Assembly (NCBI GenBank): GCA_043821445.1
Contig: JBDRCT010000036.1
Coordinates: forward strand, 25,879 to 89,878
Direction: 5' to 3'
Source of the DNA: Candidatus Omnitrophota bacterium
Lineage (GTDB): Bacteria; Omnitrophota; Omnitrophia; Omnitrophales; Aquincolibacteriaceae
Length of the DNA: 64,000 nucleotides
Both the position numbers and the translations under genes were made by a program. The notes below the pieces were generated by a model. The model worked only from the letters and a program-made list of their open reading frames with translations. It was not told the origin of the DNA and did no database searches. Below, piece by piece: positions 1 to 17,315 of this stretch (position 1 is the stretch's first letter; every line of letters begins with the position of its first letter).

Positions 1-11
1 AAGACTGAACA

Positions 12-1475: not shown

Positions 1476-1533
1476 AAAAGTTCCTTTATGCAAAATAAAA
1501 AAGCAGTTCCCCTCTTTTAAGTGGAACTCATAT

Positions 1534-1746
1534 CTATCTTTTATTCCTTTTCTCTATTTCCTCTAAGCGCATTTTGAAGTCATTCCAATAGTTTATAAAC
1601 TTCATAAGCTCTTCATCATTTGAACGTAATGCTGAGGCAATTGTTTCTTGTTCAATGGTGCCCGTAAGACCAAACACTCTTTTTATTGCCTCGCCTAGTT
1701 CATTCCATGTTTTTACTGCTTGCTTTTTCAAGTCTTCACGCGCCAT
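1534..1746 (-). CDS. Small 70-aa helical protein of unknown function (operon member)
   Basis: ORF MAREDLKKQAVKTWNELGEAIKRVF... lies between the TM/TPR gene and the HEPN-like gene on the same strand. Gaps are 40 to 60 bp. Confidence 0.5.
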   Translation of the reverse strand: MAREDLKKQAVKTWNELGEAIKRVFGLTGTIEQETIASALRSNDEELMKFINYWNDFKMRLEEIEKRNKR

Positions 1747-1808
1747 TTTCCCCTCCTTGTTTTTATATAAAAAAAGCGGTTCCCTCTGGCTCGATTAATA
1801 CTTCTATG

Positions 1809-3242
1809 CTATTCATTTTCTGGAATAGCCTCTACTTGAGACTGTTCGGTTTCCATCTCGGCAATGTATTTTTTAGCCATCTCTGACAAGATACGCATTT
1901 GAGCAAAAGCGATGCTCTCTTTTAAAAAAATATGGAATTCTTGGGCAGAAGCATTAAAGTTTCCAATAATTTTATTCAACAGACCAATCGCAAATCTAAA
2001 TTGGACTTTTCCAGGATGTATATCAAAATAATGGCTAATAAATGCTATGACTTCCATGTATATGCCGCCTGCGGCTTCGCGCCCAAAAGCCTCTTCGTAT
2101 TCAGAAACTGCATGTTCATATTTTTCCTCACATAAGTCCAAGAAGGCGCTAGATAACCATGCGCTGGCAACCGTTTTTGAATATTCTTTTGCCAATTCGA
2201 TATGCTCTCGCGATTTTGAAACGTTATCCAAAAAGAAATAAAAAGTGGCGGCGCATAAGTGTGCTTGCGCCCAGTTTAATTTTTCATTTAAAGCTCGATT
2301 CGTTCTATCTAAACAAAATTCTATGCTTTTTCTGTCTATATTGAATCCCTTTGGCCGAAATATGTTGGTCCGATATACTACTTTCGCAGAATTCAAATAC
2401 GCCTCGCGAAGAAAAAATAATATTTTTTCTTTAAAAAGATATCGCCATTTAAAGTTTTGAATCTTTTTTGTTTCGATATTTTGCTTGAGGTCTTCGAAAA
2501 CAGCGCTGGCATTTTCGTAATGCCCGTATAGAAACAAGATTAATCCTAAAATGTATAATGTTGTTTCTCTTAAATTTTTTGACATTACGTCTAAGTCTAG
2601 GCTTTCATTTTCCTCATTAATGCTCCATCTGCGCCCACCAATTCCCATGCCCACAGCAGCACATGTTTGAATTTTTGGCATTAGCTCCATAATGGGTATC
2701 TTGTAAGTGAAATGTATTTTTGGAAACGTATAAAGCTTCTTCTTTTTTTGAGAAGCGACGCTCATATATCCCCAAATTATTAAACAACAGTTACTTTTTG
2801 AACGGATTTCATTCGCTTGCTCGACTGTCTCAATGCAATAATTGGGTGGCAAAGTGACAAGGCGAATAGAGCCACCCAAAGAGACATTAACCAATTCTTC
2901 TTTAAGTCTTTCTCTCAAATCTCTTATGACCTTTTGAACTTCTTCAGAGCCTCTTGGTGAAAATAAAACAGCTATTTCGTTATTTTTAAAAATGGGCATT
3001 CTGCGACCAAGCAACCAAAAAACAATTATTATTGCTGATAATAAAAAAAAGCCTATCAAATGCCCTGTTGGTAGCAATCTTGGATTGCTTTTTAACCCAT
3101 CAAAAGTAATCTCCAAAAGGGGTTTAATATTTGCTGCGCCAAAATGATAAACAATATTCGCCAGTATAATGCTGACGAACAAGCCCCTCCCTCTGTACCA
3201 CTGCGAATTAATCCAATCAAAAACTTTTATGTAATCAAACAT
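1809..3242 (-). CDS. Membrane-anchored protein (2 N-terminal TM helices) with an alpha/beta segment and a TPR-like helical C-terminus; unknown function
   Basis: 477-aa ORF. Hydrophobic stretches GLFVSIILANIVYHFGAA and LIGFFLLSAIIIVFWLLG. Then a beta-alpha-beta pattern (IAVLFSPRG..IRLVTLP..CCLIIWG). Then helical repeats. It sits immediately downstream of the SIR2-like gene. Confidence 0.55.
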   Translation of the reverse strand: MFDYIKVFDWINSQWYRGRGLFVSIILANIVYHFGAANIKPLLEITFDGLKSNPRLLPTGHLIGFFLLSAIIIVFWLLGRRMPIFKNNEIAVLFSPRGSEEVQKVIRDLRERLKEELVNVSLGGSIRLVTLPPNYCIETVEQANEIRSKSNCCLIIWGYMSVASQKKKKLYTFPKIHFTYKIPIMELMPKIQTCAAVGMGIGGRRWSINEENESLDLDVMSKNLRETTLYILGLILFLYGHYENASAVFEDLKQNIETKKIQNFKWRYLFKEKILFFLREAYLNSAKVVYRTNIFRPKGFNIDRKSIEFCLDRTNRALNEKLNWAQAHLCAATFYFFLDNVSKSREHIELAKEYSKTVASAWLSSAFLDLCEEKYEHAVSEYEEAFGREAAGGIYMEVIAFISHYFDIHPGKVQFRFAIGLLNKIIGNFNASAQEFHIFLKESIAFAQMRILSEMAKKYIAEMETEQSQVEAIPENE

Positions 3243-3356
3243 TGGTAGTTACCTCTCATGGGATACAAAAAAGGCGGCTCCCCTATTAAGAGAACCGCCC
3301 TCAATAATTCAAAATTCAAGACGCCCTTCAGGGCTTATTGCTGGGTAGTATAAACC

Positions 3357-4535
3357 TCATTTTTGTGAGTCGCTAGGGAAAGAAGAGAGCGAATCTGTAT
3401 ATTCTTTTAATCGCTTTTTTTCTATTTCAGTTATGATGCTTAACCGTCTGTCAAAAACTATGTTTGCTATTCGCTGAATGTATTTATCGCTGCAATTTAA
3501 TAGCTTCTCTTTAAATGGGAAAAATGCTTTCTCGGTCGCTTTTTTTTCATTAACAACATCCACGAATCTTTTATATGTCATGCAAACAAACCATATTTTG
3601 TCATGGCAATATTTTTTATAATGAGCCTCCATGTTTTCGTCCGGGTTGATTACCGTTATCCTCTCTTTCCCGGCCAACCTCTCGTCTTCATCTGCAACCG
3701 CAAAGTATGGATAACCGCTAAATAAAACCCTGCTCATTGTATCTTCTTTAGGAAAAGAATAGCCAATGTAAGTTTTATTAAGTGAATTACGTAATAAAGA
3801 GTAAGCGCTTGCCCACAAATCTTTTATAGGAATAAACAACTCATCTTTTTGGAGCAGTGGGGGTATAAAAAATGCCTCTTGGCCTTTCTCTTCGAACTCA
3901 TTGCGAAGTAGCTTTTGGCAAGCTCTAATCAAATATTTTGTTCTTTTACCATCGTCGTATTGGAGTATCTTTGTATAAAAAGCCGCATCCTTGGGTAATT
4001 CATCTACTGAAAACCAATCGATTGAACCATGTAATTTAAGTATTACGATATCTTGTTTTGTGATATTAAACCTGAATTCATATTTCTTCTGAATTTTATC
4101 AAGCTGTTTTTCAATAAGATTATCCCAATTAAATGTTATTACAGCATCTCCGGGTTTTAGCCTTTGGCAAAATTGATTCAGATATTGCTCGTTTTCAGAT
4201 TTGAAGTTTTCTATTTTCTTATCTAAAAGTCGACCGATTTCAAGATGGAATTCTTTTTTGAAATCGCTTACATATTTGAACAATGGGACGCCTAGAAGTT
4301 CATAGTAGTTTATTAATGAACGAAAATAATTATAAAAATCTTCCACATTAGGGTAATTCGCCAAGGCTGTTCTGAAGGAAGGATAAAAATTTATGCAGGT
4401 TGTATTAATTTTGTCAGCAAACGTTTCGCTGGTTCCATTGTTCACTAGCATCCCAAGAAATTCATTGGCTAGCGGTAAATCAAATGTCTTTGAGAAGCCA
4501 GCCCCTAGAATGTAGACGGTTCTATTTATGCTCAT
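3357..4535 (-). CDS. SIR2-like (DHS-like NAD-binding fold) protein, defence-type NADase family
   Basis: 392 aa. N-terminal YILGAGFS (GAGxS NAD-binding motif), ITFNWDNLIE (T-x-N-x-D) and LKLHGSIDW (catalytic His), in the order typical of SIR2_2/ThsA-type SIR2 domains. GGAGGG RBS 8 nt upstream. Confidence 0.75.
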   Translation of the reverse strand: MSINRTVYILGAGFSKTFDLPLANEFLGMLVNNGTSETFADKINTTCINFYPSFRTALANYPNVEDFYNYFRSLINYYELLGVPLFKYVSDFKKEFHLEIGRLLDKKIENFKSENEQYLNQFCQRLKPGDAVITFNWDNLIEKQLDKIQKKYEFRFNITKQDIVILKLHGSIDWFSVDELPKDAAFYTKILQYDDGKRTKYLIRACQKLLRNEFEEKGQEAFFIPPLLQKDELFIPIKDLWASAYSLLRNSLNKTYIGYSFPKEDTMSRVLFSGYPYFAVADEDERLAGKERITVINPDENMEAHYKKYCHDKIWFVCMTYKRFVDVVNEKKATEKAFFPFKEKLLNCSDKYIQRIANIVFDRRLSIITEIEKKRLKEYTDSLSSFPSDSQK

Positions 4536-4689
4536 TTGGGTAATATACCCTCCAATTTTTCTTTGAGCCAGAGAAAGCTACAGCCGATACCCTTTAGCTC
4601 AAAATAAGTGATTTTGCTAAAGACCTTAATCCCCTAGACCCTGCCGTAGGGAAAAGTTTGAGTAGTGGCTTTTGAAGGGACGATTTTTT

Positions 4690-4750
4690 GTTATGGCTAT
4701 GACGGTATTCCCGAACATCATTGAGCCTTAAATCGCTTTTAATGGCCGAA
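4690..4750. repeat. Left copy of imperfect direct repeat (att-like); perfect 20-bp core CTTAAATCGCTTTTAATGGC at 4731..4750
   Basis: TTATGGCTAT...CTTAAATCGCTTTTAATGGC recurs at 12364..12429. The integrase gene ends 170 bp to the right. Confidence 0.55.
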
Positions 4751-4916
4751 TTTTGTTTTCCTTAAAATCGATAGAAAGAAACAGTAGGTAGTATATTGAA
4801 AAGAATTGAGACCTCGCTAAATTCGACCCGTACCCTCTAGGAGATAAAGGGGGCAATCTGACTCTTAGTCAGATGCTCTTTGGGGCTTGAGGGAAAAACG
4901 AAAGGATATAACCCTC

Positions 4917-5993
4917 TTAATTTGAGGCGGTTGCGGTAACGTTTGCCGAGGGAGTATTTGGGGTAACGGCTTCTGGTGACTTATTGGTGACTATATTTTT
5001 CCCGAGTAGGGCTACAGCTTTATTCTTGTGGGACTGGCTGAGATGGGAGTACCTGAGGGTCATTTCTAAGGATTTATGCCCGAGCAGTTCTCGGATAGTA
5101 TTAAGGTCTACGCCACTCATAGCCAAATGAGAAGCGAAAGTATGTCGAAGGTCGTGAAATCGAAAATCTTCTATCTTTGATTTCTTCAGAGCGGTCTGAA
5201 AAGCCTTTCTAAAATTAAACGGTTTCCCGTCCTCTCCGCAAAAGACATAGCTGCTTTCAGAATGCCGTTTAATCGATGCGAGAGCTTTCCTGATATTTAG
5301 ATTAAGCGGACAGTATCGTTTTTCATCGTTTTTTGTCTGCATCAAGGCAATTACTTCGTTCACATAATCAACATCTTCCCACTTCAGACCTTGAATCTCT
5401 CCCTTTCTCATCCCTGTATTAAGAGCAACTTCAACAATCGCTCTTAGCTTCGGAGAACAGTGCCCTAGTAGAATTTGAATCTCTTCCTTGGACAAAAATC
5501 TAAGCCTCCGGTTATCCTCTTTAAAAAATTTCACCTTCTTGACCGGATTTTCGGTCGCTTTCCCCCATTCCACTGCTTTTGAATACATCACCTTTAGACA
5601 AGCGAGCTCCCGGTTAACAGTAGCCTTACAAACGGTTTTAAGCCGTTCTTCCCGGTATCTTTCAATCATCAGCGGAGTAATTTCATAGAGATACCTTTTA
5701 CCAAACGGAGGCATGAGACGATTCAGGATAGTCTTATCTGTTTTCTCCCATGACTTTTTATTTGGTTTAGCATAGAGCTCAAGGTAATCACCCGCGAAGT
5801 CTTTGAATCTTATTTTTTTGAGCTGCTTAATGTCTAGGTGCCTATTTTCAATTACCTCAACTTCCCGTTTCATTAAGACAGCCTGAGCTTGCTTTTTGCT
5901 ACGCCCTATCTTCTGGCGCATTCTTCTTCCTTGAGCGTCGTAGTAATCGATATACCAATCTTCTCCTCTGTTCTTCCTCTGATAAATTCCCAT
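4917..5993 (-). CDS. int: Tyrosine recombinase / phage-type integrase
   Basis: 358 aa. The C-terminus carries the catalytic signature ...HDLRHTFASHLAMSGVDLNTIRELLGHKSLEMTLRYSHL (R..HxxR..Y). N-terminal SAM-like region. Confidence 0.9.
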   Translation of the reverse strand: MGIYQRKNRGEDWYIDYYDAQGRRMRQKIGRSKKQAQAVLMKREVEVIENRHLDIKQLKKIRFKDFAGDYLELYAKPNKKSWEKTDKTILNRLMPPFGKRYLYEITPLMIERYREERLKTVCKATVNRELACLKVMYSKAVEWGKATENPVKKVKFFKEDNRRLRFLSKEEIQILLGHCSPKLRAIVEVALNTGMRKGEIQGLKWEDVDYVNEVIALMQTKNDEKRYCPLNLNIRKALASIKRHSESSYVFCGEDGKPFNFRKAFQTALKKSKIEDFRFHDLRHTFASHLAMSGVDLNTIRELLGHKSLEMTLRYSHLSQSHKNKAVALLGKNIVTNKSPEAVTPNTPSANVTATASN

Positions 5994-6054
5994 TGTCCTT
6001 ATCTCCTTTTCCTAGAATTTGATGCAAAGTAAGCATTATTGTTATTAATTATAG

Positions 6055-6261
6055 TCATATTATACTTGCTGATATTGAATAGTCAATAACTGGATGGATT
6101 CTTTCATCTAGCCATTTTTCGATATCCGTGCGCTTGAACCTGAGAAGCCTTCCGACTTTAACGAAGGGTATTTCTCGCTTGTGAATCCATGAGTAAAGTG
6201 TGTTGGGGCGAATTTTTAAATAATCCGATACTTCCGTAGGGGTCATTAGCTCTGACTGCAC
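6055..6261 (-). CDS. xis: Excisionase-family / AlpA-like HTH DNA-binding protein
   Basis: 68 aa. TPTEVSDYLKIRPNTLYSWIHKREIPFVKVGRLLRFKRTDIEKWL matches the excisionase-family HTH pattern. It lies directly upstream of int. Confidence 0.7.
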   Translation of the reverse strand: MQSELMTPTEVSDYLKIRPNTLYSWIHKREIPFVKVGRLLRFKRTDIEKWLDERIHPVIDYSISASII

Positions 6262-6439
6262 TGTTCGTTGTTATCCTTTCTGATAATCATTTGGCGCCTA
6301 TAAGGCTTGGTATAATCTATAAAGACTTCATTTTCTGAAGAATGTAAGAATAACCGGCCTAGGCTACGAGTATTCAAAAACTGAAGCGTAAGGGGTCCTC
6401 TGATGGCACTTGACGCTTTATTTATTGACGAATGACACT

Positions 6440-6781
6440 TCATAACTTGAACCTAGAAATTGCATTGTCGTACCTCCCAGTAAGTTTGTAATAAGTGGTA
6501 AATCTATACTTACCTCCAACCGTCCGGCTTCTTTCAATCCACTCTTTCTGTTCCAGCCCCTTAAAAGCTTTGGCAATAGTCGCAGAGGCCATAATGTCTT
6601 CCATCTCACTGTAGTGGAGGCAAATATCGCCGTTATTGGCCCCGTTGAATTTATACTTAAGATGGATATATAAAATTTTCTCGGAAGAAGTAAGTCCGCT
6701 CCTCCACGCTGGGTTTTTTAAAAGTTCACGCTCTAAAGCCACAAAAGGTTTAAATTGATTTTTCCTTTTATTTGCTCCCAT
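6440..6781 (-). CDS. Hypothetical 113-aa protein of the integrative element
   Basis: Clean minus-strand ORF between xis and the iteron-like repeats. No recognisable motif. Confidence 0.4.
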   Translation of the reverse strand: MGANKRKNQFKPFVALERELLKNPAWRSGLTSSEKILYIHLKYKFNGANNGDICLHYSEMEDIMASATIAKAFKGLEQKEWIERSRTVGGKYRFTTYYKLTGRYDNAISRFKL

Positions 6782-7077
6782 TTTTATCTCTTTTCAGATT
6801 TATGTATCTTTACGCTCCCGTTTGAATTTTTAGCATTGTTAATACCGTTCGTCCTTTAACGGATTTGAGCCCTTGTAATAGCCCAGGATTACAACAATCC
6901 TCTGGGCAAGGGTTAGGCTATTTTTTTTAAAGAAGCCGAGCCGTTTGAAAATGAGGACAAACCAAAATCTTCATGGCAGCGTGTTGTTTGCAAACGCAAG
7001 CGCATTGCTGGCACTTAGGATTAACCTTATTAGGTTTGCCCTTATAAAATCGGATATACTCCTTTTTCCCCATACGT

Positions 7078-7215
7078 TATGACCTCCTCTCCTAACCTTG
7101 TTAAGTATCAAAAAGGGGTGACAAGACTCCCCTTATGAGAAAAGAGATAGCACCTCTCCTACTAAGGATAAGTGTCAAAGAGGTATGACAAGAAATGAGG
7201 GGAAAAGAAAAAAGA
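7078..7215. repeat. Two ~45-bp imperfect direct repeats (iteron-like)
   Basis: CCTCTCCTAaccttgtTAAGTaTCAAAaAGGgGTGACAAGA and CCTCTCCTActaaggaTAAGTgTCAAAgAGGtATGACAAGA are adjacent. They lie between the 385-aa and 113-aa genes. Confidence 0.5.
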
Positions 7216-7237
7216 GAGAGGGAAAAGGTTGTTGAAC

Positions 7238-8395
7238 TTATTTTTTCTTAAAAAAATTAACGCAAGTGAGGGCTTGCTTCGCAGAGTAGACGCATTTCGA
7301 ATTTACTAGTTCCGGCTTAGGGATATTTCCTTTATGCGAGTGTCTAATAAGCGTTCTCTCTGAAACTTTTAATTTTTCAGCTAACTTCTCACGGCTTACA
7401 AAATTTTTGGGTGGTTCTCGTCTTACTCTTTGTCTTACTAGTTCTAGCAAAGGTGCATAGTCACAAGGTCTGTAAATTCTACAATACCTTCTTCCTTTTA
7501 GCTCCCATTCGGATTTGTAAATACCATTTATGTCCAAATTTCTAAGTGTCTGGGGAGAACAATGAACATAAGCAGCCATTTGCTTAACCAATATTTCTTG
7601 ATTCTCATCAGGAAAGTGCGAAATTGGCATGGGAGCAATCGCTCGTCTGTTTTTTTGTTGTATTTTTCCTCTTTCATTGTTCACAATTTCGTAGCAATCA
7701 CTCTCTGATGGTTTTCTCTCAAAAGCATTTCTTAGAGAATGCGCTTTTCGCCGAAGAAGCCCTATAATCCATTCCATAGCTCTAAAACGTTTGTTCTCCG
7801 AAATTTTTTTACATGCTTCCAAGATTACAGAATAAACTTCGCCTTCAGTAAAAACCTGATAATTCTTTTTTATAAGGGGAGTTACACCCCTATCAAGCTT
7901 TTCACGGATTCTTTTTATTGCGCATTCATCTTTCTTACTCGCGCGAAGAACCAAATCATAGTCTAAAGAAACTAAATCCTTCGCTAACTTAACAGCGCCT
8001 TCACAAAATTGTTTTAATCGCTTTTCAAAGTTTGCGTTTTGGGTAATGACATATTTGGAAAACGGATGCATCTTTCCGTTTTTAATAGACTTTTGCCTGT
8101 TAAAAAGGCTGGCTATGGTTTGGCGTCGCATTTCCGCAAATCTGAGCCTTCTTAACTTGGTTTTTACTAGAGCCTTTATTAATGATTTTTTCTTTCCTTC
8201 TTTCGATATATAAAATTTTAACCATGCGCACTTTTTTCTTAATCTATTTTCTTCTTCTATGATTGAATTTAATGCATTCTTCTGAGCTTGCCCCGATAGG
8301 AAGTAATCGCTTGCTTCTTTGAAGTGTTTATCTTTTTTGTAGGCATCGAATAGACTTTTGGTGCTTTTATCCATATTACCTCTAATTTTGGACAA
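7238..8395 (-). CDS. Hypothetical 385-aa basic protein with C-terminal HTH-like segment; possible replication/regulatory protein of the element
   Basis: K/R-rich ORF. The C-terminal REKLAEKLKVSERTLIRHSHKGNIP resembles an HTH. It is adjacent to the iteron-like repeats. Confidence 0.4.
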   Translation of the reverse strand: MSKIRGNMDKSTKSLFDAYKKDKHFKEASDYFLSGQAQKNALNSIIEEENRLRKKCAWLKFYISKEGKKKSLIKALVKTKLRRLRFAEMRRQTIASLFNRQKSIKNGKMHPFSKYVITQNANFEKRLKQFCEGAVKLAKDLVSLDYDLVLRASKKDECAIKRIREKLDRGVTPLIKKNYQVFTEGEVYSVILEACKKISENKRFRAMEWIIGLLRRKAHSLRNAFERKPSESDCYEIVNNERGKIQQKNRRAIAPMPISHFPDENQEILVKQMAAYVHCSPQTLRNLDINGIYKSEWELKGRRYCRIYRPCDYAPLLELVRQRVRREPPKNFVSREKLAEKLKVSERTLIRHSHKGNIPKPELVNSKCVYSAKQALTCVNFFKKK

Positions 8396-8561
8396 TTATA
8401 GCAAGGAACGACTGGAAGTACCGTCTCAAAAGAGGCTAGCGTTGATATTTACGAGGGGATATAGAGAAAGGGAAATATTTAACTTCGGAAAAAAAGGATT
8501 AATTTTTAACCGTAGAGTTATCAAAATTCGACCGTCTTCTCATCGATATTTAACCGAAAGG

Positions 8562-8813
8562 CTACCGAGATAACGCGCCGGAGAGAAATAACCAAATTCC
8601 ATATACTATAATTGAAAGCACTAAGCCAATTATGCTAGTAATTAAACCACCTGTTGCGATACCATTAGGAAATTTTTTTATTTGCTTCGTCGAAAAAACA
8701 ATCCCCGAAACGCCAATTGCGATACCTACTAAACCGATTAATGGCCCAATGATAATGCTTAAAATTCCTAGCACCAAGCCTGCTATCCCGAAACCATTTT
8801 GATTTTTCTTCAC
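8562..8813 (-). CDS. Small polytopic membrane protein (83 aa)
   Basis: Gly/Ile-rich hydrophobic helices (GIAGLVLGILSIIIGPLIGLVGIAIG...). Confidence 0.45.
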   Translation of the reverse strand: MKKNQNGFGIAGLVLGILSIIIGPLIGLVGIAIGVSGIVFSTKQIKKFPNGIATGGLITSIIGLVLSIIVYGIWLFLSGALSR

Positions 8814-8977
8814 GCGATTTTTCCTCCCAACTCCCAGGACAGGAGTCCAACCACAGCTAAAATTATGACTGGCGATATCAAGGCCATATCCATCATTTTA
8901 ATTTGCTTCGTTAAAGATTTTTCCTTCGGAATATTTTGAATTTCTTCGGCACAATACGGACATTTTTTTGTCCCCAT
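8810..8977 (-). CDS. Small zinc-ribbon plus single-TM protein
   Basis: MGTKKCPYCAEEIQ..., then a hydrophobic helix. GGGAG RBS upstream of the ATG at 8977. Confidence 0.4.
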   Translation of the reverse strand: MGTKKCPYCAEEIQNIPKEKSLTKQIKMMDMALISPVIILAVVGLLSWELGGKIA

Positions 8978-9002
8978 AGTTTTTCTCCCTTTTTTCTTAT
9001 TT

Positions 9003-9524
9003 TTAAACCTGATGCCGCTCTGAGTGCCGCTGATGTTTGTTCCAGTTATCACGGTATTTTTTTGCTAAGATTTTATCTTGAACCACCAAAAGATTTTCCG
9101 CATTTTTGTCTTCTGCTGTGTTGGTGAAGTTGAAAGACCCTGTTATCACAATAACTTCGTCAATAATCATAACTTTGTTGTGTGCTATCGAGTGTTTGCT
9201 ATCTATGCTTACAGGCACCCCAGTTTCTATCAATAAATTTAGTTTGCTTCCCTTAGCGTGTTTTTGACTTTTGTCGAGTAAAATTTTTACTCTCACACCC
9301 CTTTTGTGGGCATTTACAAGAGCCTCTGCTATCGGTTGCGATGTGAAAGAATATGCCTGAACAAGAATTGAGGTTTGGGCTTGGTCTATAGCGTCAACAA
9401 TAGCTTGGGTACAACCGCCTTTAGGAGAAAAGTATGCGTGAGGAACTGCATCAACAGCAGGAAGAAACGGAAAAAAATGGCTGCTTAGTAATAGTAGAAC
9501 AAGAACTGTTTTTTTAATTTTCAT
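9003..9524 (-). CDS. Secreted phospholipase-D-superfamily endonuclease (Nuc-like)
   Basis: Signal peptide MKIKKTVLVLLLLSS. PLD HKD motif HNKVMIID (H-x-K-x4-D) followed by GSFNFT. Size (173 aa) is typical of Nuc. Confidence 0.75.
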   Translation of the reverse strand: MKIKKTVLVLLLLSSHFFPFLPAVDAVPHAYFSPKGGCTQAIVDAIDQAQTSILVQAYSFTSQPIAEALVNAHKRGVRVKILLDKSQKHAKGSKLNLLIETGVPVSIDSKHSIAHNKVMIIDEVIVITGSFNFTNTAEDKNAENLLVVQDKILAKKYRDNWNKHQRHSERHQV

Positions 9525-9538
9525 GCTGCAGCTTATTG

Positions 9539-10324
9539 CTATTTTTGAGGTTGAGCCGTATAAATAAAGCCTTCGCTGTCGTAAGCCTTTAGCGTACCGT
9601 CCTCAGCAATTATCACATAGTCGCCGAATGAATTATTGGGATTTGCATACAGGCGTTCTTCACCCGAAATATTTTTGACAAACAGCTCTTTTATGTCGCC
9701 ACTCCCATCTCGAAATTTTCTCTCTCTAATATATTTCCCACCTTTTTTTCGAATAATAACTCTATGCGCGAGAGAGGGGGCCCACTCGTCAAACCATCTG
9801 CCAACCAAGATGCCATTCTCGTTCTCTAATGGAGGCACATCGTCTTTGGCGGCGGGAGAATCATACTTATCAGCCCATTGAACCTTGGTCTCATAACCGC
9901 TTCTGTCATTTGAAGCCGCTATGTCTGCGGTTACTGCACATTGACTACCAGGATTGCCCGCTGGACACCAAAGCACCATTGCGACATTAAAAGAACCCAC
10001 GGCTTCAGGGTCTGTATCGTAAACAAGCATATGAATTCGGTCTATTTCACTATCTTTGTTTCTAATGTCTAGGATTGCTGCATCTATTATTTTTTTATAT
10101 TGTTCTTTGGTTAAATCAGGTTTGACGGTGATACTGCATCCCATTGTTTTGATTTTAGGTAGCGAAGCTAGTTCAGTTAAAGTATAGGAAGAGGCTGGTC
10201 TGCTCAACGCCGAAATGCTACTTTCATTGTTTGACTTAATTTGATAGTCCGCCTCTGCAAAACAAGGTGAGCTGAGAGCGCTGAGGACTGCGATGGCGAG
10301 TAATACCACTATCATCTTCTTCAT
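9539..10324 (-). CDS. Secreted protein, paralogue A (shared C-terminal ~90-aa domain)
   Basis: Signal peptide. C-terminal GRWFDEWAPSLAHRVIIRK...GEERLYANPNNSFGDYVIIAEDGTLKAYDSEGFIYTAQP aligns with the C-terminus of the next gene. Confidence 0.55.
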   Translation of the reverse strand: MKKMIVVLLAIAVLSALSSPCFAEADYQIKSNNESSISALSRPASSYTLTELASLPKIKTMGCSITVKPDLTKEQYKKIIDAAILDIRNKDSEIDRIHMLVYDTDPEAVGSFNVAMVLWCPAGNPGSQCAVTADIAASNDRSGYETKVQWADKYDSPAAKDDVPPLENENGILVGRWFDEWAPSLAHRVIIRKKGGKYIRERKFRDGSGDIKELFVKNISGEERLYANPNNSFGDYVIIAEDGTLKAYDSEGFIYTAQPQK

Positions 10325-10358
10325 GGTGAACCCCCTAAGTTAGAAAGACAAGACGACC

Positions 10359-11300
10359 TCAATTAATCAAAAATGGAGGTTGTTCTTTTCGTGGTTCGTT
10401 CCTATAGAGGAAACCTTCCTTGTCATAATAGTTGAGCCAACCATCCTTGGCGATAACCATATAGGCGCCTGAAGAATTCCCAGGTTTGTCGGTTAGCCGT
10501 TCCTCACCAGCAACACGTGTAACCGAAAGCTTTTCTTCGCTGCTGTTTCCTTCCTCGTATATTTTTTTTATAAAATATTCTTCCCCACTCTTTCGAATCA
10601 CAACAATGTGAAAAGGGATAGACCAGACATTAAACCATCTTCCCAACACAACCCCACTGTTATAATCAGATGACTTATCGAGATTGCTTTCGGTGTAAAG
10701 TTCGGATTGTTTAGGTTTCATAATCGCATCTAGGGATAAAATCTCACCACATTGTTTCAAGGCATCATTTAAAAAATCGAGACGAATGTCCATTTGCGGA
10801 TTTTTTCCTTTCAACAAATCCCCATAGTCGAAACGTAAATTAAATAAATAAGACAAGGCGACTAACATTTGCCGCTTTGCTTCAGCGCTTTCTGGACACG
10901 TCGTAGAAACCGATTGGGTTTTTTGTTTTAGGGCTTCGAGTTGTTTTGACCAATTAGCTGACCAGCCACTCCACGGCAGCTTTTGAAATTCTTCCGCTGC
11001 CTTTAAATCATCACCTTTGAGAGCGTAAGCTAAGCTTATAGAGGTATCTTCATGGTTGGGGTTATAATTTTGTTTTTTAAACTCCTGATATTTATTTATT
11101 AACTCTCCATGCATTTCCTCGGTTTGCTTTAAAAGGATTGTTAGCTCATTCAGTTCCGAATGTTTGACTATATATTCATTTTTTATACGGGACGTGCCGT
11201 TTTCTTTTACAATTACTGTGGTTGCATCACAAGGAAACGGTAGTATCAAAATCAGCAAAAGAGAGAATAGGGCTTTAATTATCGAAAGATGTTTTCTCAT
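10359..11300 (-). CDS. Secreted protein, paralogue B (shared C-terminal ~90-aa domain)
   Basis: Signal peptide. C-terminal GRWFNVWSIPFHIVVIRK...GEERLTDKPGNSSGAYMVIAKDGWLNYYDKEGFLYRNEP. Confidence 0.55.
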   Translation of the reverse strand: MRKHLSIIKALFSLLLILILPFPCDATTVIVKENGTSRIKNEYIVKHSELNELTILLKQTEEMHGELINKYQEFKKQNYNPNHEDTSISLAYALKGDDLKAAEEFQKLPWSGWSANWSKQLEALKQKTQSVSTTCPESAEAKRQMLVALSYLFNLRFDYGDLLKGKNPQMDIRLDFLNDALKQCGEILSLDAIMKPKQSELYTESNLDKSSDYNSGVVLGRWFNVWSIPFHIVVIRKSGEEYFIKKIYEEGNSSEEKLSVTRVAGEERLTDKPGNSSGAYMVIAKDGWLNYYDKEGFLYRNEPRKEQPPFLIN

Positions 11301-11400
11301 AAATCCCCTTTACGCTTTGTAGACTATCGTCTTCCGCAGAAGCTTTAGTTTGAATAAAAAGCAGACAGAAAAAACAGCTTTTATTGCGTGAGAATGTTAA

Positions 11401-11622
11401 TCAGCGATTAAGATATGCTTGGTAAGCGCCATCAATGAGAAATTGCTCAGGCGTACCAGTGGCCCTAGACTTGTTGGCGATACTAGATTTAATTTCAGAG
11501 GGAGTTTTGCCAATCACGGAGGCGATGTAGTTTATTTTTTCCTCATTGCTTTCGGCATAGGCTTGAACTATAGGGCACGTCAAAAAACATATTAAGAGAA
11601 GTATAGCTATACGCAGATTCAT
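11401..11622 (-). CDS. Small secreted protein (73 aa)
   Basis: Signal-peptide-like N-terminus. Confidence 0.4.
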   Translation of the reverse strand: MNLRIAILLLICFLTCPIVQAYAESNEEKINYIASVIGKTPSEIKSSIANKSRATGTPEQFLIDGAYQAYLNR

Positions 11623-11660
11623 TGTGGCTGTCCTTCGTGGGTTTATCGTTAGTATATTTT

Positions 11661-11957
11661 TTAGTTCGTATCGCTAACTTCAAATAGACCGTACATTCTG
11701 CTGATGCTCATTGATAAGACGTTTGAATCGCTGGAATCATAGAAACTATTAAAAGCACCGTAATAAAAATTCCAATCATGCTTACCAATGCTAGCTAAAT
11801 TTTGACAAATATTGACTTTGGCTTCATAGTTCGCTTTTTGCCAAGCATAGCCATCATCAGTCATGGTTAAGCTGTCAGTAGCAAGAGCCACTGAGCACAC
11901 CGTCAGGAAAAGAAGAGTAAGAACGGTTATTTTCTCCTGGCTCATATTTCCTCCCAT
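11661..11957 (-). CDS. Small secreted protein (98 aa)
   Basis: Signal-peptide-like N-terminus. Confidence 0.4.
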   Translation of the reverse strand: MGGNMSQEKITVLTLLFLTVCSVALATDSLTMTDDGYAWQKANYEAKVNICQNLASIGKHDWNFYYGAFNSFYDSSDSNVLSMSISRMYGLFEVSDTN

Positions 11958-12029
11958 TTTGTAGACTATCGTCTGTAGAGTTATAGTCTACATTTAGCAA
12001 TCATATGCCTCAAGGATATTCTGGGGTAT

Positions 12030-12251
12030 ATGCAAACCATACAAAAAGCTTTCGGGTTAGCCGTCAGGAAATACCGCTATGGGCTAGGTTTGTCTCAAGA
12101 GGAATTTGCTGAAAAGGCGGGGATTCATAGAACCTATGTCTCGGATATTGAACTGGGCAAGGTCTCTATCGGGCTAAGCGTGGCTCAAAAGCTAGCTTCG
12201 GTATTTGGTTTGAAACTGAGCGAATTAATCAAAAAAGCCGAGAAATATTAG
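12030..12251 (+). CDS. XRE-family HTH transcriptional regulator
   Basis: GLSQEEFAEKAGIHRTYVSDIELGK is a classic Cro/C1-type HTH. Confidence 0.75.
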   Translation: MQTIQKAFGLAVRKYRYGLGLSQEEFAEKAGIHRTYVSDIELGKVSIGLSVAQKLASVFGLKLSELIKKAEKY

Positions 12252-12363
12252 TTTCCCGCTTTCACCTTCCTTTAAATCTGCTAAAGAATTAAAAACCTGT
12301 CAAATCGATTTTTCCCCCTGGGGGAATTTAGCTAAAAAGGGCTATTTTTGACATTACAGCTCT

Positions 12364-12429
12364 TCTTTTTCTTTATGGCTATCACCCCTATTAGGAAGGA
12401 ACCCAGGGGCTTAAATCGCTTTTAATGGC
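12364..12429. repeat. Right copy of imperfect direct repeat (att-like); core CTTAAATCGCTTTTAATGGC at 12410..12429
   Basis: Shares TTATGGCTAT and a perfect 20-bp core with 4690..4750. Confidence 0.55.
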
Positions 12430-12539
12430 TTGTTTTTCTTCGAAGGGTATATAGCACAGTTATTTGCGAGCAGATACATTGGCAAGAATTGCGAAAGCTT
12501 TAAAGATACCTGCTGGAAAATTGCTTGTCCTTTAATCTG

Positions 12540-13121
12540 TTAGACCTGATTAATCGCTTCCCCGCTCATTGCTTTGCGCGCAGGCTTATCGATATTATTT
12601 TCTTGTCCGCTGATTGAGGGAATCCATATTGGAAATTTATACAGCAAGCTAAGTCTTTTTTGTTCCAGAGCCGCCAGCGATACCTGCTCAGTAGCGATTC
12701 TCATATCAATCATTACTTTAATAAGACCCCCGCTATATTCCGCACTTTCTTTTTGAGAATCAGAAATACTCCCCTTAGCCTTAGCTATTTCTTCCTCCAA
12801 TCGCTTGATTTCTTTTGTTGAATCAACAGCTTCATCAATCGCTTCCCCATTTACCGAGTAGCTAATTTTTATGAACTTATTAATTCCCTGCCTTTTTTGC
12901 TCTAACATGGCTAGTGTATTTTTATAAATTTGCTCTCTAACTGTTAATAAATCTAGGACTAGTCCTCCAGAATAGTTTTGCTTCTCTTTTTGAAGTTCAG
13001 CTACCTGGGCGTTAAGACTTGTGATTTCTGAATCTATTTTTTTGGTATCGATTGGTTGGGCGCAACTCGTCAGCATGAGCGATAGAAGAAAAAGTATCCC
13101 CCCTCTTTTCGGGCTTTTCAT
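12540..13121 (-). CDS. Lipoprotein with coiled-coil segments
   Basis: Lipobox LTSCAQP after the signal peptide. Heptad-like repeats. Confidence 0.5.
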   Translation of the reverse strand: MKSPKRGGILFLLSLMLTSCAQPIDTKKIDSEITSLNAQVAELQKEKQNYSGGLVLDLLTVREQIYKNTLAMLEQKRQGINKFIKISYSVNGEAIDEAVDSTKEIKRLEEEIAKAKGSISDSQKESAEYSGGLIKVMIDMRIATEQVSLAALEQKRLSLLYKFPIWIPSISGQENNIDKPARKAMSGEAINQV

Positions 13122-13129
13122 ATGGCTCC

Positions 13130-13699
13130 TTATAATTGTTTTACTGCTTTTTCTTCATTAAGTTTTTTGGCAATTACTGCCAGCGCCTTGCATTCGTATC
13201 TAATCATCAATCCTAAGGTGAAGTTATCCCCAAAAAGCACTAACTGAATAATGGATTCTGGGGTATCCCACTCCGAAAAATAGGCGCCTTCGCCGGTAGA
13301 AATTGCCGTTGCGTCGTCTATGAATTGATTGTCGCTACCTTTTCTTGCTTTTTGTTTCGGTTCGCCGTATTTCTTTTTTAAGAGACTCTCAAATTCATCG
13401 AACTTTGAAATGTAGGTTTTTTTATTTGTTGTTTTTATTTGTATTAAAACCCCCGTTTGATAAAGCTTTCTTTCGACAAATTGAAAGCCTATTTGAACAT
13501 TTTCACCAGAGATCGTGCTTAAGAAAAACGGGGTCCCATCGCTGTCCGTTTTAAAATCCATATTAGGAAAAGCGGCTTTGACTTGCTCAAGACTCATTCC
13601 CCACTTAGCATTTTGATAGCCCTCTGTAAAATCAGAAGCACTACTGCTGGTGATTGGCATTATTAAAAGAAACATTAGCATTAAGGTTCTTTTCCCCAT
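13130..13699 (-). CDS. Secreted hypothetical protein
   Basis: Signal peptide MGKRTLMLMFLLIMPITSSSAS. Confidence 0.5.
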   Translation of the reverse strand: MGKRTLMLMFLLIMPITSSSASDFTEGYQNAKWGMSLEQVKAAFPNMDFKTDSDGTPFFLSTISGENVQIGFQFVERKLYQTGVLIQIKTTNKKTYISKFDEFESLLKKKYGEPKQKARKGSDNQFIDDATAISTGEGAYFSEWDTPESIIQLVLFGDNFTLGLMIRYECKALAVIAKKLNEEKAVKQL

Positions 13700-13717
13700 T
13701 ATTCTGTCTCCTTATCT

Positions 13718-13912
13718 TTAATCAAGAAACGTTTGAATAACTTCTATTTGTTCCTTAGTCGGTTTTGTCTCACCCAGCTCCAGCCGGGCAATGTAATCCT
13801 GACTGACACCCATTCGTTCAGCAAGCTCAACGATTGTTACTCGCTTTGACTTACGAATATGACGAATCATGTCACCAGGGGTTACGAAATATGGGGCGTC
13901 TTCTTCTGTCAT
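13718..13912 (-). CDS. XRE-family HTH regulator (64 aa)
   Basis: RVTIVELAERMGVSQDYIARLELGE. Confidence 0.65.
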   Translation of the reverse strand: MTEEDAPYFVTPGDMIRHIRKSKRVTIVELAERMGVSQDYIARLELGETKPTKEQIEVIQTFLD

Positions 13913-13927
13913 TGCTTTTTCAATTTC

Positions 13928-14491
13928 CTAAAGTTGGTACGTAGCCTTCACTCTTACTGAGTCTTTAAGATACGTATACCAAACAATAACATATACGCCT
14001 GTTTGAAATAAACTGATGAACGTCGGCTGCAACATGGCCTTATTCGCTTCTTCAGGAAGTCCTCCCATAAATGGTAAAATCGCACCTACCACATTACATC
14101 CTATAGAAAACAACAGATATCTTTTAGCCATTTGAACAGCACCTGCCTTTATTTTCCACAGTCCGACGCCCGCATAAATGCTAAAGGCCATAATAACCAA
14201 GTTAAGGAAAGTAAGTATAACGCAAACGACTAGGAATCTTGGAAACTGGCCAAACAGCTGCGACGTGTTCGAGTATAATCCAGCAATGTCTCGTATTATT
14301 CCAATGGGCGAAAGCATTGTAAGGCTAATACAAAAGAATAACAGCCATCCATCTACTCCCGCGTAAGTTTTGGTTGTTTGCTGAGTCATCGGCGCAATTT
14401 CACCGGTATTTAAATCACTTTTGCATTTCCAACATATAGACAACGCTGGATTGTTTTTTTCTTTACATTTAGGGCATGCTTTAGAGTTCAT
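13928..14491 (-). CDS. Membrane protein with N-terminal zinc ribbon
   Basis: N-terminal zinc ribbon CPKCKEKNNPALSICWKCKSDL, then several TM helices. Confidence 0.55.
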   Translation of the reverse strand: MNSKACPKCKEKNNPALSICWKCKSDLNTGEIAPMTQQTTKTYAGVDGWLLFFCISLTMLSPIGIIRDIAGLYSNTSQLFGQFPRFLVVCVILTFLNLVIMAFSIYAGVGLWKIKAGAVQMAKRYLLFSIGCNVVGAILPFMGGLPEEANKAMLQPTFISLFQTGVYVIVWYTYLKDSVRVKATYQL

Positions 14492-14804
14492 GCTTCTCTC
14501 CTATCTTATTCCGCAGCGTTAACAAATAAATTCCTATTCCCATATCAATTGGAAACCAGATTAATCTAACTAAATAAACTGGAAATAGTGGGTTAAAGAG
14601 AACGGCAATGATAATCAAAGGGATTTTATGCCCCTTAAGGGCTTCATCCTGCCCGAGCTTTATCGCTGCATACACTGTAATGCCGCACACGAGAAGCCGA
14701 AGAAGCGTATAAAAGCCATACGGCCAGATTGGGATGACGGCTAGAAAAAGAATAATAGCCGCTATCAATAAGAGGGATTTTAATTGGTCTTGTAACTGAC
14801 TCAC
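14481..14804 (-). CDS. Small polytopic membrane protein
   Basis: 107 aa, three hydrophobic helices. Confidence 0.45.
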   Translation of the reverse strand: MSQLQDQLKSLLLIAAIILFLAVIPIWPYGFYTLLRLLVCGITVYAAIKLGQDEALKGHKIPLIIIAVLFNPLFPVYLVRLIWFPIDMGIGIYLLTLRNKIGEKHEL

Positions 14805-14816
14805 ATGAGATTCTCT

Positions 14817-15479
14817 TTATCTTGAGGTTGTTTCGTTCGAGTCTAGACCTAACTGCCTTTGAAGTGTGCCTCCACATTTCCAGCAAGACAAAAGGTCTGG
14901 GTTGTTTTTTTCATAACATGACGGGCAGATTCTACTGCCAGCTATGACCTCTCCCGCTGAATCCGCATTTACCGTTGCTCTAATCTCATATTTCTTTTGT
15001 TCAACCGTCTCGTAAATAGATCCTAACCACGCAGCATAAATTCTCATCCCATAGGTAATAATTAATCCCAAAACTATTCCTCCGGCGGCGGCCCATTGCC
15101 TCGCAAATAAAAGTCCAATGCAAGCTATGGGAGATACAGCGGGAAAGTAAAATAGGAGGAATAGAGCAAACCATTTCAAATAAAAAACAACCGTTAAAAA
15201 AGAAAAAAGCCATACCGCTGCCCCGCACGAATAAGAGAGAACCATGGATGTTATCGCCATAGAACTTCTTAGTGGCTGGAAAAAAGACAGTGGCAAAACG
15301 ATGAATAAAAAGACCAGGATAGAAAGGCCTGCGAGCCATGAAACAATCGGGTAAAGAAAAGCAGAAATCGCCGTAAATCCTGCAAACATTGCTCCAAAAA
15401 GAAGCATAAATCCGGCCATTATTGCGAGTCCTAGTAAAACGCTGCCACTTTGTTTTAACATTTCTGTGATGTTAGCCAT
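14817..15479 (-). CDS. Polytopic membrane protein with C-terminal zinc ribbon (paralogous motif to 13928..14491)
   Basis: C-terminal zinc ribbon CPSCYEKNNPDLLSCWKCGGTL, mirroring the N-terminal motif of the gene two positions upstream. Confidence 0.55.
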   Translation of the reverse strand: MANITEMLKQSGSVLLGLAIMAGFMLLFGAMFAGFTAISAFLYPIVSWLAGLSILVFLFIVLPLSFFQPLRSSMAITSMVLSYSCGAAVWLFSFLTVVFYLKWFALFLLFYFPAVSPIACIGLLFARQWAAAGGIVLGLIITYGMRIYAAWLGSIYETVEQKKYEIRATVNADSAGEVIAGSRICPSCYEKNNPDLLSCWKCGGTLQRQLGLDSNETTSR

Positions 15480-15512
15480 GAAAGCTCCTTTGTTCTCTCT
15501 ATTTTTGTTTCT

Positions 15513-15767
15513 CTATGGCTTACAAACCTTGCATGGAATATACCCAGCCTGCATTGCCTCTTCCTTGCTGCTGAATCCAACGAGGTTAGAGGGCTTAATT
15601 CTTTTTGCCCAAACACAAGATGGACGATGGTATTTATTCGATTTACTAGACCCCACGTAAGTCATTTCCTGCTTCTGGGCATAGGTAGTGGGTGTTACTA
15701 CATGGGGAAAAACGAGGATGGAGATTGTGAGAATAACGCTAACGAGAAACGGGCGTAGTAGTTTCAT
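15513..15767 (-). CDS. Small secreted protein with Ada-like Cys4 metal-binding domain
   Basis: Signal peptide. YHRPSCVWAKRI...FSSKEEAMQAGYIPCKVCKP matches the Ada N-terminal zinc-binding pattern (PSC...EA..AGYxPCKxCxP). It overlaps the thermonuclease gene by 29 nt. Confidence 0.5.
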   Translation of the reverse strand: MKLLRPFLVSVILTISILVFPHVVTPTTYAQKQEMTYVGSSKSNKYHRPSCVWAKRIKPSNLVGFSSKEEAMQAGYIPCKVCKP

Positions 15768-16362: not shown

Positions 16363-16377
16363 AGAAACAGCTGGTTA

Positions 16378-16593
16378 TTAATACCAAGCTTTCTTGTAAC
16401 CCTTTTGGCCCGTATAAGGGTTCACATTGCCTTGGGTGCTGTAATTGTTCATCTGCGTGCTATCAGGGTTTGAGCGATAATGCGGTGCAACATATGTCCC
16501 ATTCCTGCGAGTGTATCCATTCACGTACCCAGCAAAAGCGGGGGCTTGAAGGAGTGTTAGCAATAACAACACAAAAGCAAATATTTTCTTCAT
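16378..16593 (-). CDS. Small secreted protein (71 aa)
   Basis: Signal peptide MKKIFAFVLLLLTLLQAPAFA. Confidence 0.4.
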   Translation of the reverse strand: MKKIFAFVLLLLTLLQAPAFAGYVNGYTRRNGTYVAPHYRSNPDSTQMNNYSTQGNVNPYTGQKGYKKAWY

Positions 16594-16623
16594 CGTGCAC
16601 CTCTTTGGTTATCTGGTATTTGG

Positions 16624-17240: not shown

Positions 17241-17284
17241 AATAAAAAAATAGCGCAACCCATCTAGTTTGGATAAGTTGCGCT
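17241..17284 (-). terminator. Rho-independent terminator-like hairpin (8-bp stem AGCGCAAC/GTTGCGCT) followed by a U-run on the minus strand
   Basis: Sits immediately 3' of the tRNA-like fragment on the minus strand. Confidence 0.5.
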
Positions 17285-17315
17285 TGTTGTATTTGGAAGA
17301 TTTTTTTAGCGGTTG

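Follow-up and report, generated by a model that had tools for sequence, protein, structure and literature searches.

Two copies of a 20-bp direct repeat enclose about 7.7 kb of DNA, with a tyrosine integrase gene at one end, in the genome of a Candidatus Omnitrophota bacterium (assembly GCA_043821445.1, contig JBDRCT010000036.1), and the question raised by this locus is whether the repeats are the attachment sites of an integrated mobile element and, if so, what kind of element they delimit. The stretch analysed, positions 25,879 to 89,878 of the contig (64 kb), is called the window below, and all coordinates of the locus refer to it. An original prediction had described here a nested integrative element with attL/attR ends that would be phage-satellite-like or plasmid-like and would carry a Rep-like gene. 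In the present analysis, the two repeats are regarded as the probable attachment sites of an integrative plasmid-like element of 7.7 kb (7,683 bp from repeat to repeat), situated in a larger foreign island. Of the earlier interpretation, the att-bounded, integrative and plasmid-like character was retained, while the phage satellite and the Rep function of a 385-amino-acid (aa) protein were not.

The 20-mer CTTAAATCGCTTTTAATGGC is present in two exact copies on the same strand, at 4727-4746 and 12410-12429. It is the longest exact direct repeat of the window, all others being 17 nt or shorter, and no third copy could be found in the window even at three mismatches (chance expectation 0.01 matches). 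Pairwise alignment confirmed the imperfect direct repeats with a perfect 20-bp core which had been placed at 4690-4750 and 12364-12429, and it added to them. TTATGGCTAT sits 26 nt upstream of the left and 27 nt upstream of the right core as part of a 20-nt block, block 1, which matches at 17 of 20 positions (4684-4703 versus 12366-12385), a score reached by 8 of 1000 shuffles; the spacer of 23 and 24 nt between block 1 and the core is unrelated between the two copies. On its right-hand side the core is followed by a further stretch of about 75 nt, not mentioned previously, that is homologous and collinear (4753-4822 versus 12430-12500, z = 3.9), with a score reached in 7 of 3000 shuffles and in 19 of 2000 random island segments. 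Farther out on the left, no significant similarity between the copies was detected. Block 1, the core and the right-side homology together therefore form a perfect 20-bp core within about 140 bp of diverged homology, in which the arms around the core are only about 60% identical.

On inspection, the core with one base on each side has the form GCCTTAAA-TCGCTT-TTAATGGC, an imperfect inverted repeat with a 6-bp centre, which by eye reads as the layout usual for the core site of a tyrosine recombinase. A core-like half-site, CCTTAAAATCGAT, is found 10 nt to the right of the left core copy. The candidate attL would cover 4684-4746, with weaker homology to about 4822, and the candidate attR 12366-12429, with weaker homology to about 12500. 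Both are intergenic, the left one 170 nt past the stop codon of the integrase gene and the right one 158 nt past that of an XRE regulator gene, so that direct repeats and an adjacent integrase are found together, as in an element bounded by attL and attR. An exact scan for the 20-mer yielded one unrelated match in 185,579 species genomes (the Bacteroidales metagenome-assembled genome L001) and one in 241 million metagenome records (the eukaryote-like L002). With two copies in the window, these two unrelated database matches and none in the 94 other fetched loci, a widespread dispersed repeat family was rejected.

The gene content between the repeats is that of a complete and intact integrative element, comprising an integrase, an excisionase-like gene, a winged-helix gene with iterons and an XRE regulator. 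The integrase and excisionase-like genes lie immediately inside the left repeat, as had been predicted. The tyrosine integrase (358 aa, 100% identical to NCBI protein MFH1800589.1 from a 97,347-bp contig of a Candidatus Omnitrophota genome; 4917-5993, minus strand) matched PF00589 with an E-value of 3.5e-38 and 131.5 bits (cut-off 27.1) and Int_N with 35.8 bits (cut-off 27). Its catalytic residues R196, K221, H280, R283, H306 and Y315 are present and invariant in an alignment of 31 sequences that includes the window protein. The nearest solved structures are the integrases of P2 (5C6K, E 3e-23) and HP1 (1AIH, E 1e-14). The integrase clade is very large, with more than 7,000 proteins at E < 1e-20, and relatives at 55-69% identity were found mainly in Omnitrophota and Nitrospirota. 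A tblastn search of the window revealed no second integrase and no integrase remnant. The excisionase-like HTH_17 protein (68 aa; 6055-6261, minus strand) matched HTH_17 at E 2.6e-17 as well as PHROG excisionase families, is 38% identical to its counterpart in the related locus L009, and occupies the position adjoining int where a recombination directionality factor is expected. At the end opposite the integrase, inside the right repeat and again in agreement with the original prediction, the XRE/HTH_3 regulator (73 aa; 12030-12251, HTH_3 E 2.3e-16) is the sole gene on the plus strand.

Between the excisionase-like gene and the cargo, a 113-aa winged-helix DNA-binding protein is encoded (6440-6781, minus strand), which is a candidate iteron-binding initiator or regulator. 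No Pfam or NCBIfam family matched it; nine homologues of 56-71% identity were found, together with weak PHROG matches to the N-termini of DnaD-like loaders and to replication initiation proteins (E 2e-6 to 2e-3). Its structural model is a generic winged helix-turn-helix (wHTH), with the RepA_N N-terminal domain at E ~0.03 and a template-modelling score of ~0.5 among many MarR-type matches. No pairwise similarity was found between this protein and either the Phage_rep_O protein of the related locus L005 or the 124-aa protein of L009. Directly after the gene lies a conserved non-coding, origin-like region (6314-6442, minus strand) with TGAAGCGTCA-type iterons at 6433-6442 and 6411-6420, an inverted copy at 6382-6391 and the conserved AT-rich box GAAGTCTTTATAGATT at 6314-6329. 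Three TGAAGCGTCA-type repeats and the GAAGTCTTTATAGATT box follow the stop codon in all four loci for which DNA was available (the window, L091, L093 and L094; mean identity 71%). Short repeats adjoining the gene of a DNA-binding protein and conserved in relatives are the hallmark of an iteron-type replicon, and the 113-aa gene with its iterons makes a promising candidate for the origin or a copy-control unit. Since L091, L093 and L094 have the same non-coding layout, the 65-aa open reading frame (ORF) at 6246-6443 is probably spurious. The iteron replicons with RepA_N initiators (4PQL, 5KBJ, 4PT7) are similar in having a winged-helix gene beside three short direct or inverted repeats and an AT-rich box; they differ in that the fold match of the 113-aa protein to them is no better than to MarR, PadR and TubR regulators and that this protein has no second domain.

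The Rep-like gene of the original prediction was another one, encoding a 385-aa near-orphan protein (7238-8395, minus strand), and this assignment was not upheld. Among 5.8 billion proteins its sole match was itself, and a HMMER scan of 1.8 billion representatives gave six remote relatives, all with two C-terminal MerR/HTH_17 domains. The AlphaFold model (predicted local distance difference test score, pLDDT, 71) has a helical N-terminal part and two C-terminal winged-helix domains of MerR/Xis type, and Foldseek matched it to RacA, MerR, Xis, BldC and pSK1 Par solely via these wHTH domains. As no sequence or fold similarity to any replication initiator was found, a Rep was rejected, and the model indicates a DNA-binding protein that is not a demonstrable Rep. 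Conserved iterons do exist in this element, namely the three TGAAGCGTCA copies after the 113-aa gene, and they are not the repeats which had probably been called iteron-like before. The latter are two 41-bp direct repeats (7086-7193; 76% identity, 67-bp period) located between the 385-aa gene and a gene for a small cysteine-rich protein. They are present in just two copies, each ending in the ribosome-binding-site-like AGGAGAGG, and conservation elsewhere was not found; they may be operator or ribosome-binding-site regions.

The plasmid-like character was borne out by the conserved wHTH/iteron module and by a circular relative, L006, in which the integrase-XRE junction predicted for the window element is seen. 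This 8,276-bp JGI contig has identical first and last 127 bp and is therefore a circular molecule of 8,149 bp. Its integrase is 61% identical to that of the window and is followed by about 600 bp, a divergent XRE gene and then genes for secreted and zinc-ribbon membrane proteins; a signal peptide is shared with the 313-aa protein of the window. Circularised at the core, the window segment would give the same order of integrase and XRE, about 350 bp apart. L006 is without the 113-aa/iteron module and has a P-loop protein instead. Its int-XRE spacer holds the 5' half of a tRNA-Thr, flanked by GGTGTCTA in tandem pairs 11-12 nt apart (9 copies against 0.48 expected). Comparison of this spacer with the reconstructed attP of the window element gave no DNA similarity.

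A possible cycle of the element can be outlined from these features. The P2/HP1-type integrase would cut and rejoin within the 20-bp core, with strand exchange in the central TCGCTT, and would be assisted by arm-type sites, for which the GGTGACT-AT pair in the 3' end of int and block 1 of ATAGCCAT type are candidates. The HTH_17 excisionase would direct excision into a 7,683-bp circle, with the integrase 3' end joined via about 350 bp to the divergent XRE gene. In the circle, the 113-aa protein could give replication, maintenance or copy control by acting on the TGAAGCGTCA iterons; XRE would control the switch, possibly together with the 385-aa double-wHTH protein. The cargo operon would export the Nuc endonuclease, two secreted paralogues and small membrane proteins. 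In this outline it is presumed that the core is the crossover site, that the present copy is able to excise, that the 113-aa protein serves as initiator and that the cargo has the function described.

Several observations weigh against an att-bounded element of 7.7 kb. The genome and metagenome collections yielded neither a second copy of this element nor its empty site or circular junction, and exact-protein look-ups of the integrase, the 385-aa protein and a SIR2-like protein outside the left repeat led to no other contigs. No ATPase, primase, relaxase or other replication or transfer enzyme was detected among the ORFs of the element. Base composition fails to split the segment from its right flank (GC 39.6% versus 41.3%; tetranucleotide r = 0.79). 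The XRE-side arm is without the canonical GGTGNCTA tandem pair, which is found instead at 17181-17199 by the 5' fragment of a tRNA-Arg, and the closest integrase relatives with known context adjoin tRNA genes and not intergenic sites. Finally, the homology extends on both sides of the core, unlike in the simple product of attB x attP recombination. This bilateral homology over about 140 bp suggests that the element was inserted into an att-like sequence of a diverged resident relative, i.e. by accretion.

The setting of the element is a foreign island. The window has mostly about 52% GC, with housekeeping genes such as gyrA, serS, cysD/N-like genes and two tRNA-Ser, and its first part, from 1 to about 17,310, has 35-41% GC. 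The tetranucleotide signature of 1-17,310 correlates with that of host segments at r = 0.49-0.63, compared with 0.96 between one host segment and another. Given this low GC and aberrant tetranucleotide composition, the 7.7-kb segment lies within foreign DNA, which extends past the left edge of the window. At the right boundary (17181-17360, minus strand), which lies outside the 7.7-kb unit under the preferred model, GC steps from about 41% to about 53%. Exactly on this step is a truncated tRNA-Arg(ACG) consisting only of the 5' end to the anticodon loop (~17311-17360, minus strand), and 112 nt from it is the tandem arm-type pair TGGTGTCTAT/ATGGTGACTA (17181-17199). The enclosing island is thus at least 17 kb long and terminates at a truncated tRNA-Arg with integrase arm-type sites. 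A tRNA fragment at the boundary with host DNA is characteristic of tRNA-targeting islands; the 3' half of this tRNA was not found anywhere in the 64-kb window, nor was a matching intact tRNA-Arg with an integrase for the enclosing island. This boundary resembles what is left of an attachment site, belonging to an island (at least 17 kb) whose other end lies beyond the left window edge, and this far end may possibly hold the intact tRNA plus an integrase. The nesting of the 7.7-kb element, claimed from the outset, is plausible in view of the low-GC foreign DNA of 1-17,310 and its end at a truncated tRNA-Arg with the arm-type sites of this integrase clade.

The same tRNA fragment is the basis of an alternative in which the true element is about 12.5 kb long, reaching from a tRNA-Arg-like relic at about 4860 to the tRNA-Arg at 17311-17360, and is integrated in the anticodon loop of the host tRNA-Arg(ACG). 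The 20-bp repeats would then be internal or due to accretion, and the DNA left of about 4860 would belong to another element, inserted later and in tandem at the same tRNA. The relic, AGAGCA-TCTGA-CTAAGAG-TCAGA (4853-4880, minus strand), is found 37-65 nt past the end of the integrase gene. Neither ARAGORN nor Rfam recognises it as a tRNA. It mimics an entire anticodon arm in which the loop is mutated, and by synteny it corresponds to the tRNA-Arg(ACG) of L009, which there overlaps the stop codon of the integrase gene. Directly after int, both L009 and L007, with integrases 63% and 58% identical to that of the window, have a tRNA-Arg(ACG), and in the window the 5' half of such a tRNA, oriented as expected, coincides exactly with the GC boundary. 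A tandem arm-type-like pair, GGTGACTTAT/TGGTGACTAT, with its members 11 nt apart, is located inside the 3' end of int (4975-4994, plus strand), the same arrangement as in the integrase 3' end of L009. The motif GGTGTCTA occurs in the window only in this pair and in the one at 17181-17199, and the tandem GGTG[T/A]CTA pairs about 110 nt from each tRNA-like core mirror the spacing in L009 and in the circular L006. All genes from 17061 to 4917 are co-oriented save XRE, which also suits a longer element. The nested part is compositionally nearest to the right flank; base composition does not discriminate between the 7.7-kb and the 12.5-kb model.

This alternative is considered unlikely. Its left end forms no junction with the host, as foreign DNA continues beyond it and no 3' half of the host tRNA-Arg is present in the window. 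The stem strands of the relic, TCTGA...TCAGA, are of the L009 type and not of the host type (CCACA), and three of the seven loop positions differ from the host. As both non-host stem strands are retained, the relic looks like an unrecombined site, which means that recombination here did not take place at the ancestral site of tRNA type; the relic may have remained from an earlier attachment site of that type or may be a tRNA that was captured. Moreover, the two ends of the 12.5-kb segment have no exact repeat of more than 6 nt in common, the perfect 20-bp repeat and its place right after XRE and int are left unexplained, and XRE, which adjoins the attachment region in the circular L006, would be 5 kb away from it. 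Because of the non-host relic, the missing shared end repeat and the unexplained 20-bp repeat, a reading in two layers was preferred, in which an older island entered the tRNA-Arg and the 7.7-kb element later entered an att-like sequence within this island.

It could also be argued that the unit is a fossil or that the repeats are not attachment sites at all. A regulatory- or terminator-like intergenic cassette of about 140 bp would have been duplicated or exchanged by homologous recombination among related islands, with int and xis as leftovers that have ceased to mobilise the segment. Homology on both sides of the core is what a duplicated cassette would show, the missing empty site and circle of this copy and the degenerate tRNA-type site by int would fit such a fossil, and the region throughout consists of mosaic foreign DNA. 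A perfect 20-bp core in arms of about 60% identity is nevertheless the pattern of site-specific exchange and not that of a drifting duplication, and the core, imperfectly palindromic, is of the type seen in recombinase sites. The reading frames of int, xis, the wHTH gene and XRE are all uninterrupted and retain conserved residues, and no further copy of the cassette was found elsewhere in the window or in the 96 fetched loci. This reading is therefore judged distinctly improbable.

A phage satellite mobilised by a helper phage (phage-inducible chromosomal island (PICI)-, P4- or PLE-like), as suggested originally, is very hard to sustain: the small size and the placement of integrase/excisionase and an XRE-type regulator at opposite ends recall PICI and other satellites, whereas PHROGs and Pfam showed no capsid or capsid-remodelling, terminase-small-subunit, packaging-redirection, primase or helicase genes, there are no close viral relatives (in 2.9 million IMG/VR contigs, the integrase most similar to that of the window has only 45% identity), and related elements bear coupling-protein, Replic_Relax or P-loop genes instead.

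Other candidate explanations were rejected. An attachment site inside a tRNA, tmRNA or small RNA was dismissed as ARAGORN found nothing at either site and Rfam nothing credible, at the gathering threshold or with E-values up to 10. A transposon target-site duplication was discarded, 20 bp being too long and no transposase being present, and a Xer/dif-type site because the core is by eye unlike dif. Nor does the element qualify as an integrative and conjugative or mobilizable element: none of the ORFs in 4747-12409 matched a relaxase, a coupling protein or type IV secretion in Pfam, PHROGs or NCBIfam, and the element carries no recognisable transfer gene.

Compared with known systems, the preferred reading of an integrative plasmid-like element comes close to the pSAM2-type integrative plasmids of Streptomyces. 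Common to both are the size of a few kb, int and xis together at one end, direct-repeat att sites, a circular form (here known from the relative L006) and a replication or maintenance module beside the cargo. The window element differs in having no recognisable conjugation or rolling-circle Rep genes, an intergenic att site instead of a tRNA 3' end, an Omnitrophota host and, as candidate initiator, a 113-aa protein of an undescribed family. The resemblance to P2 and HP1 concerns the integrase, for which these phages provide the best solved matches with complete catalytic residues. The HP1 integrase targets a tRNA anticodon arm, and tRNA anticodon arms are also used by the relatives of the window integrase. 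Sequence similarity is however low, no phage surrounds the window integrase, and the att regions of its clade bear the 5' half of a tRNA and not the 3' half (L006; window 17311-17360). Accretion arrays of cis-mobilizable elements (CIME) and integrative and conjugative elements are known from ICESt1 and ICESt3 of Streptococcus thermophilus. Similarly, the target in the window resembled the att region of the element on both sides, and the element lies within older foreign DNA without an integrase; unlike in these arrays, only two core copies are visible, the outer island ends at a tRNA-Arg fragment of different sequence, and there is no conjugation module.

Among the other relatives, a tRNA (Ala or Arg-ACG) starts not more than ~25 nt after the integrase stop, or overlaps it, on the same strand in L003-5, L007-8 and L009. 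In L005 and L007, no tRNA-derived direct repeats of at least 15 nt were found within the 10 kb covered. From the loci compared (L006 4219-4497, L009 4770-4939, L007 11088-11161 and L005 11086-11159), the attachment region of this integrase clade appears to include a tRNA 5' half, as in L006, and the integrase appears to sit immediately upstream of the target tRNA. The usual arrangement involves the tRNA 3' end, of which the arrangement in this clade is, as far as known, the mirror image. The accompanying genes are exchangeable. In L091 the 113-aa/iteron module is part of a 5.8-kb island by tRNA-Tyr, at both ends of which the same 17 bp of the tRNA 3' end recur exactly, with an integrase only 33% identical to that of the window, and in L094 it is combined with yet another integrase (26% identical). 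L004/5 and L007 carry DUF87/TrwB and Replic_Relax, and L005 has Phage_rep_O. The relatives represent integrative elements of small size and modular build, of which at least one that is close to the window element occurs as a free circle; none has close relatives in IMG/VR.

Three further features of these loci were recorded. In L009, the closest integrase relative with known context, four ~25-nt tandem repeats of TAAGCATTAAA type (3431-3517) lie between the gene of the 124-aa winged-helix-like protein and the excisionase gene, so that iterons of another kind occupy the corresponding position. The hybrid tRNA of L009 has two mismatched acceptor pairs. In L091, the stretch from tRNA-Thr to tRNA-Tyr contains, shortly before the start of the 5.8-kb island, a perfect 55-bp tandem duplication (5877-5991).

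The remaining genes of the window element, including the cargo, lie on the minus strand. A small cysteine-rich protein of 48 aa (6925-7073), below the length cut-off of the ORF list, is 53% identical to an 82-aa protein of the circular L006 (E 2e-15); an assignment to DUF5659 was rejected as no similarity was found. It is followed, beyond the 385-aa gene, by a DUF4190-like protein of 83 aa with two transmembrane segments (8562-8813) and by a zinc-ribbon protein with a transmembrane segment (8810-9052), which probably starts at M26 and whose motif KKCPYCAEEIQ recurs in two L006 proteins. The next gene encodes a Nuc-type endonuclease of the PLD family (173 aa; 9003-9524; PLDc_2 E 2.2e-30). It aligned with 1BYR (Nuc) at E 4.3e-30 over 134 residues, with HNKVMIIDEVIVITGSFN matching the 1BYR motif, and an intact single HxK(x)4D(x)6GSxN motif is present, as is typical of Nuc-type enzymes. 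A secreted PLD/Nuc nuclease had been predicted here: the Nuc identity was confirmed, and secretion is suggested by an N-terminus, MKIKKTVLVLLLLSSHFFPFLPAVDA, that is hydrophobic and signal-peptide-like by eye. The Nuc of pKM101 (1BYR) likewise has a single HKD motif, and its N-terminal export signal would have a counterpart in the signal-like N-terminus of the window nuclease; the latter differs in residing on a 7.7-kb element without a conjugation system and in being flanked by unrelated secreted paralogues. A reading as defence system was rejected, since PADLOC matches of the PLD protein to DrmC are weaker than its match to Nuc and SIR2 matches occur only outside the element.

The paralogous secreted proteins, also correctly predicted, have 261 aa (9539-10324) and 313 aa (10359-11300). 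They share a C-terminal domain of about 90 aa with 43% identity (E 3e-24), and neither matches a known family. Two small proteins of 73 and 98 aa with signal-like N-termini are encoded at 11401-11957, and the 98-aa gene probably starts at the second ATG, which follows GGAGG. The exact 17-bp direct repeat TTTGTAGACTATCGTCT is located just upstream of the 313-aa and 98-aa genes (11316-11332 and 11958-11974) and may represent a shared operator or 5'-leader element. Promoter and terminator scans gave results not above shuffle expectation.

The kind of element described here is ordinary, as integrase/excisionase islets with direct-repeat ends are common. What has not been described before is its 113-aa/iteron module, its near-orphan protein of 385 aa, its cysteine-rich protein and its secreted paralogues. 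The Omnitrophota are an uncultured phylum, and knowledge of their mobile elements is very limited. A literature search gave no description of such small elements in this phylum; an unusually high gene exchange between chromosomes and circular elements in Omnitrophota is reported in the preprint 10.64898/2026.05.20.726742, where the small family is not described. It is tentatively proposed, as a possibility still open to considerable doubt, that the window element, L006 and L009/L091/L093/L094 represent undescribed miniature integrative plasmids of 5-8 kb in Omnitrophota and neighbouring phyla. These would have swappable integrases, exchangeable 113-aa/TGAAGCGTCA and cysteine-rich modules and exported-nuclease cargo, and one integrase clade would carry the tRNA 5' half in att and be able to switch to non-tRNA targets in resident islands. 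If this were true, integration by the 5'-half clade would replace the 5' half of the tRNA and its promoter rather than the 3' end, and the exported nuclease would serve the scavenging or predatory lifestyle proposed for these ultra-small cells. With its candidate attachment sites, origin-like module and circular relative, the 7.7-kb element would be a concrete means by which secreted nucleases and other exported proteins could spread in Omnitrophota. It also offers material to test whether this integrase clade targets the tRNA 5' half, and its integrase with att and its small replicon could be a possible basis for genetic tools.

The DNA flanking the element also encodes exported proteins. On the right, 12540-17061 is a co-oriented run of lipoprotein or secreted-protein genes which includes a staphylococcal-nuclease homologue (15739-16362), DUF2569 and DUF6804 (14481-14804), the latter being also among the cargo of the related element L094. 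The whole island looks like a collection of exported proteins, including two different nucleases. Just outside the left repeat is the gene of the SIR2-like protein (392 aa; 3357-4535, minus strand), with 24.4 bits to Pfam SIR2_2 against a cut-off of 24.5 and weak PADLOC matches to SIR2/ThsA, which may be a defence gene. It is followed by two large proteins without a family match, at 1809-3242 and 12-1493.

In the host-like part of the window, the first 17 nt of tRNA-Ser(gct) (GCTATGCGACCCCTCCA, plus strand) are duplicated about 300 bp upstream of the gene (18852-18868 and 19150-19166), and a long GC-rich palindrome (19118-19143) adjoins this repeat. A second low-GC patch of 41%, in surroundings of about 52%, is located at 32000-34000.

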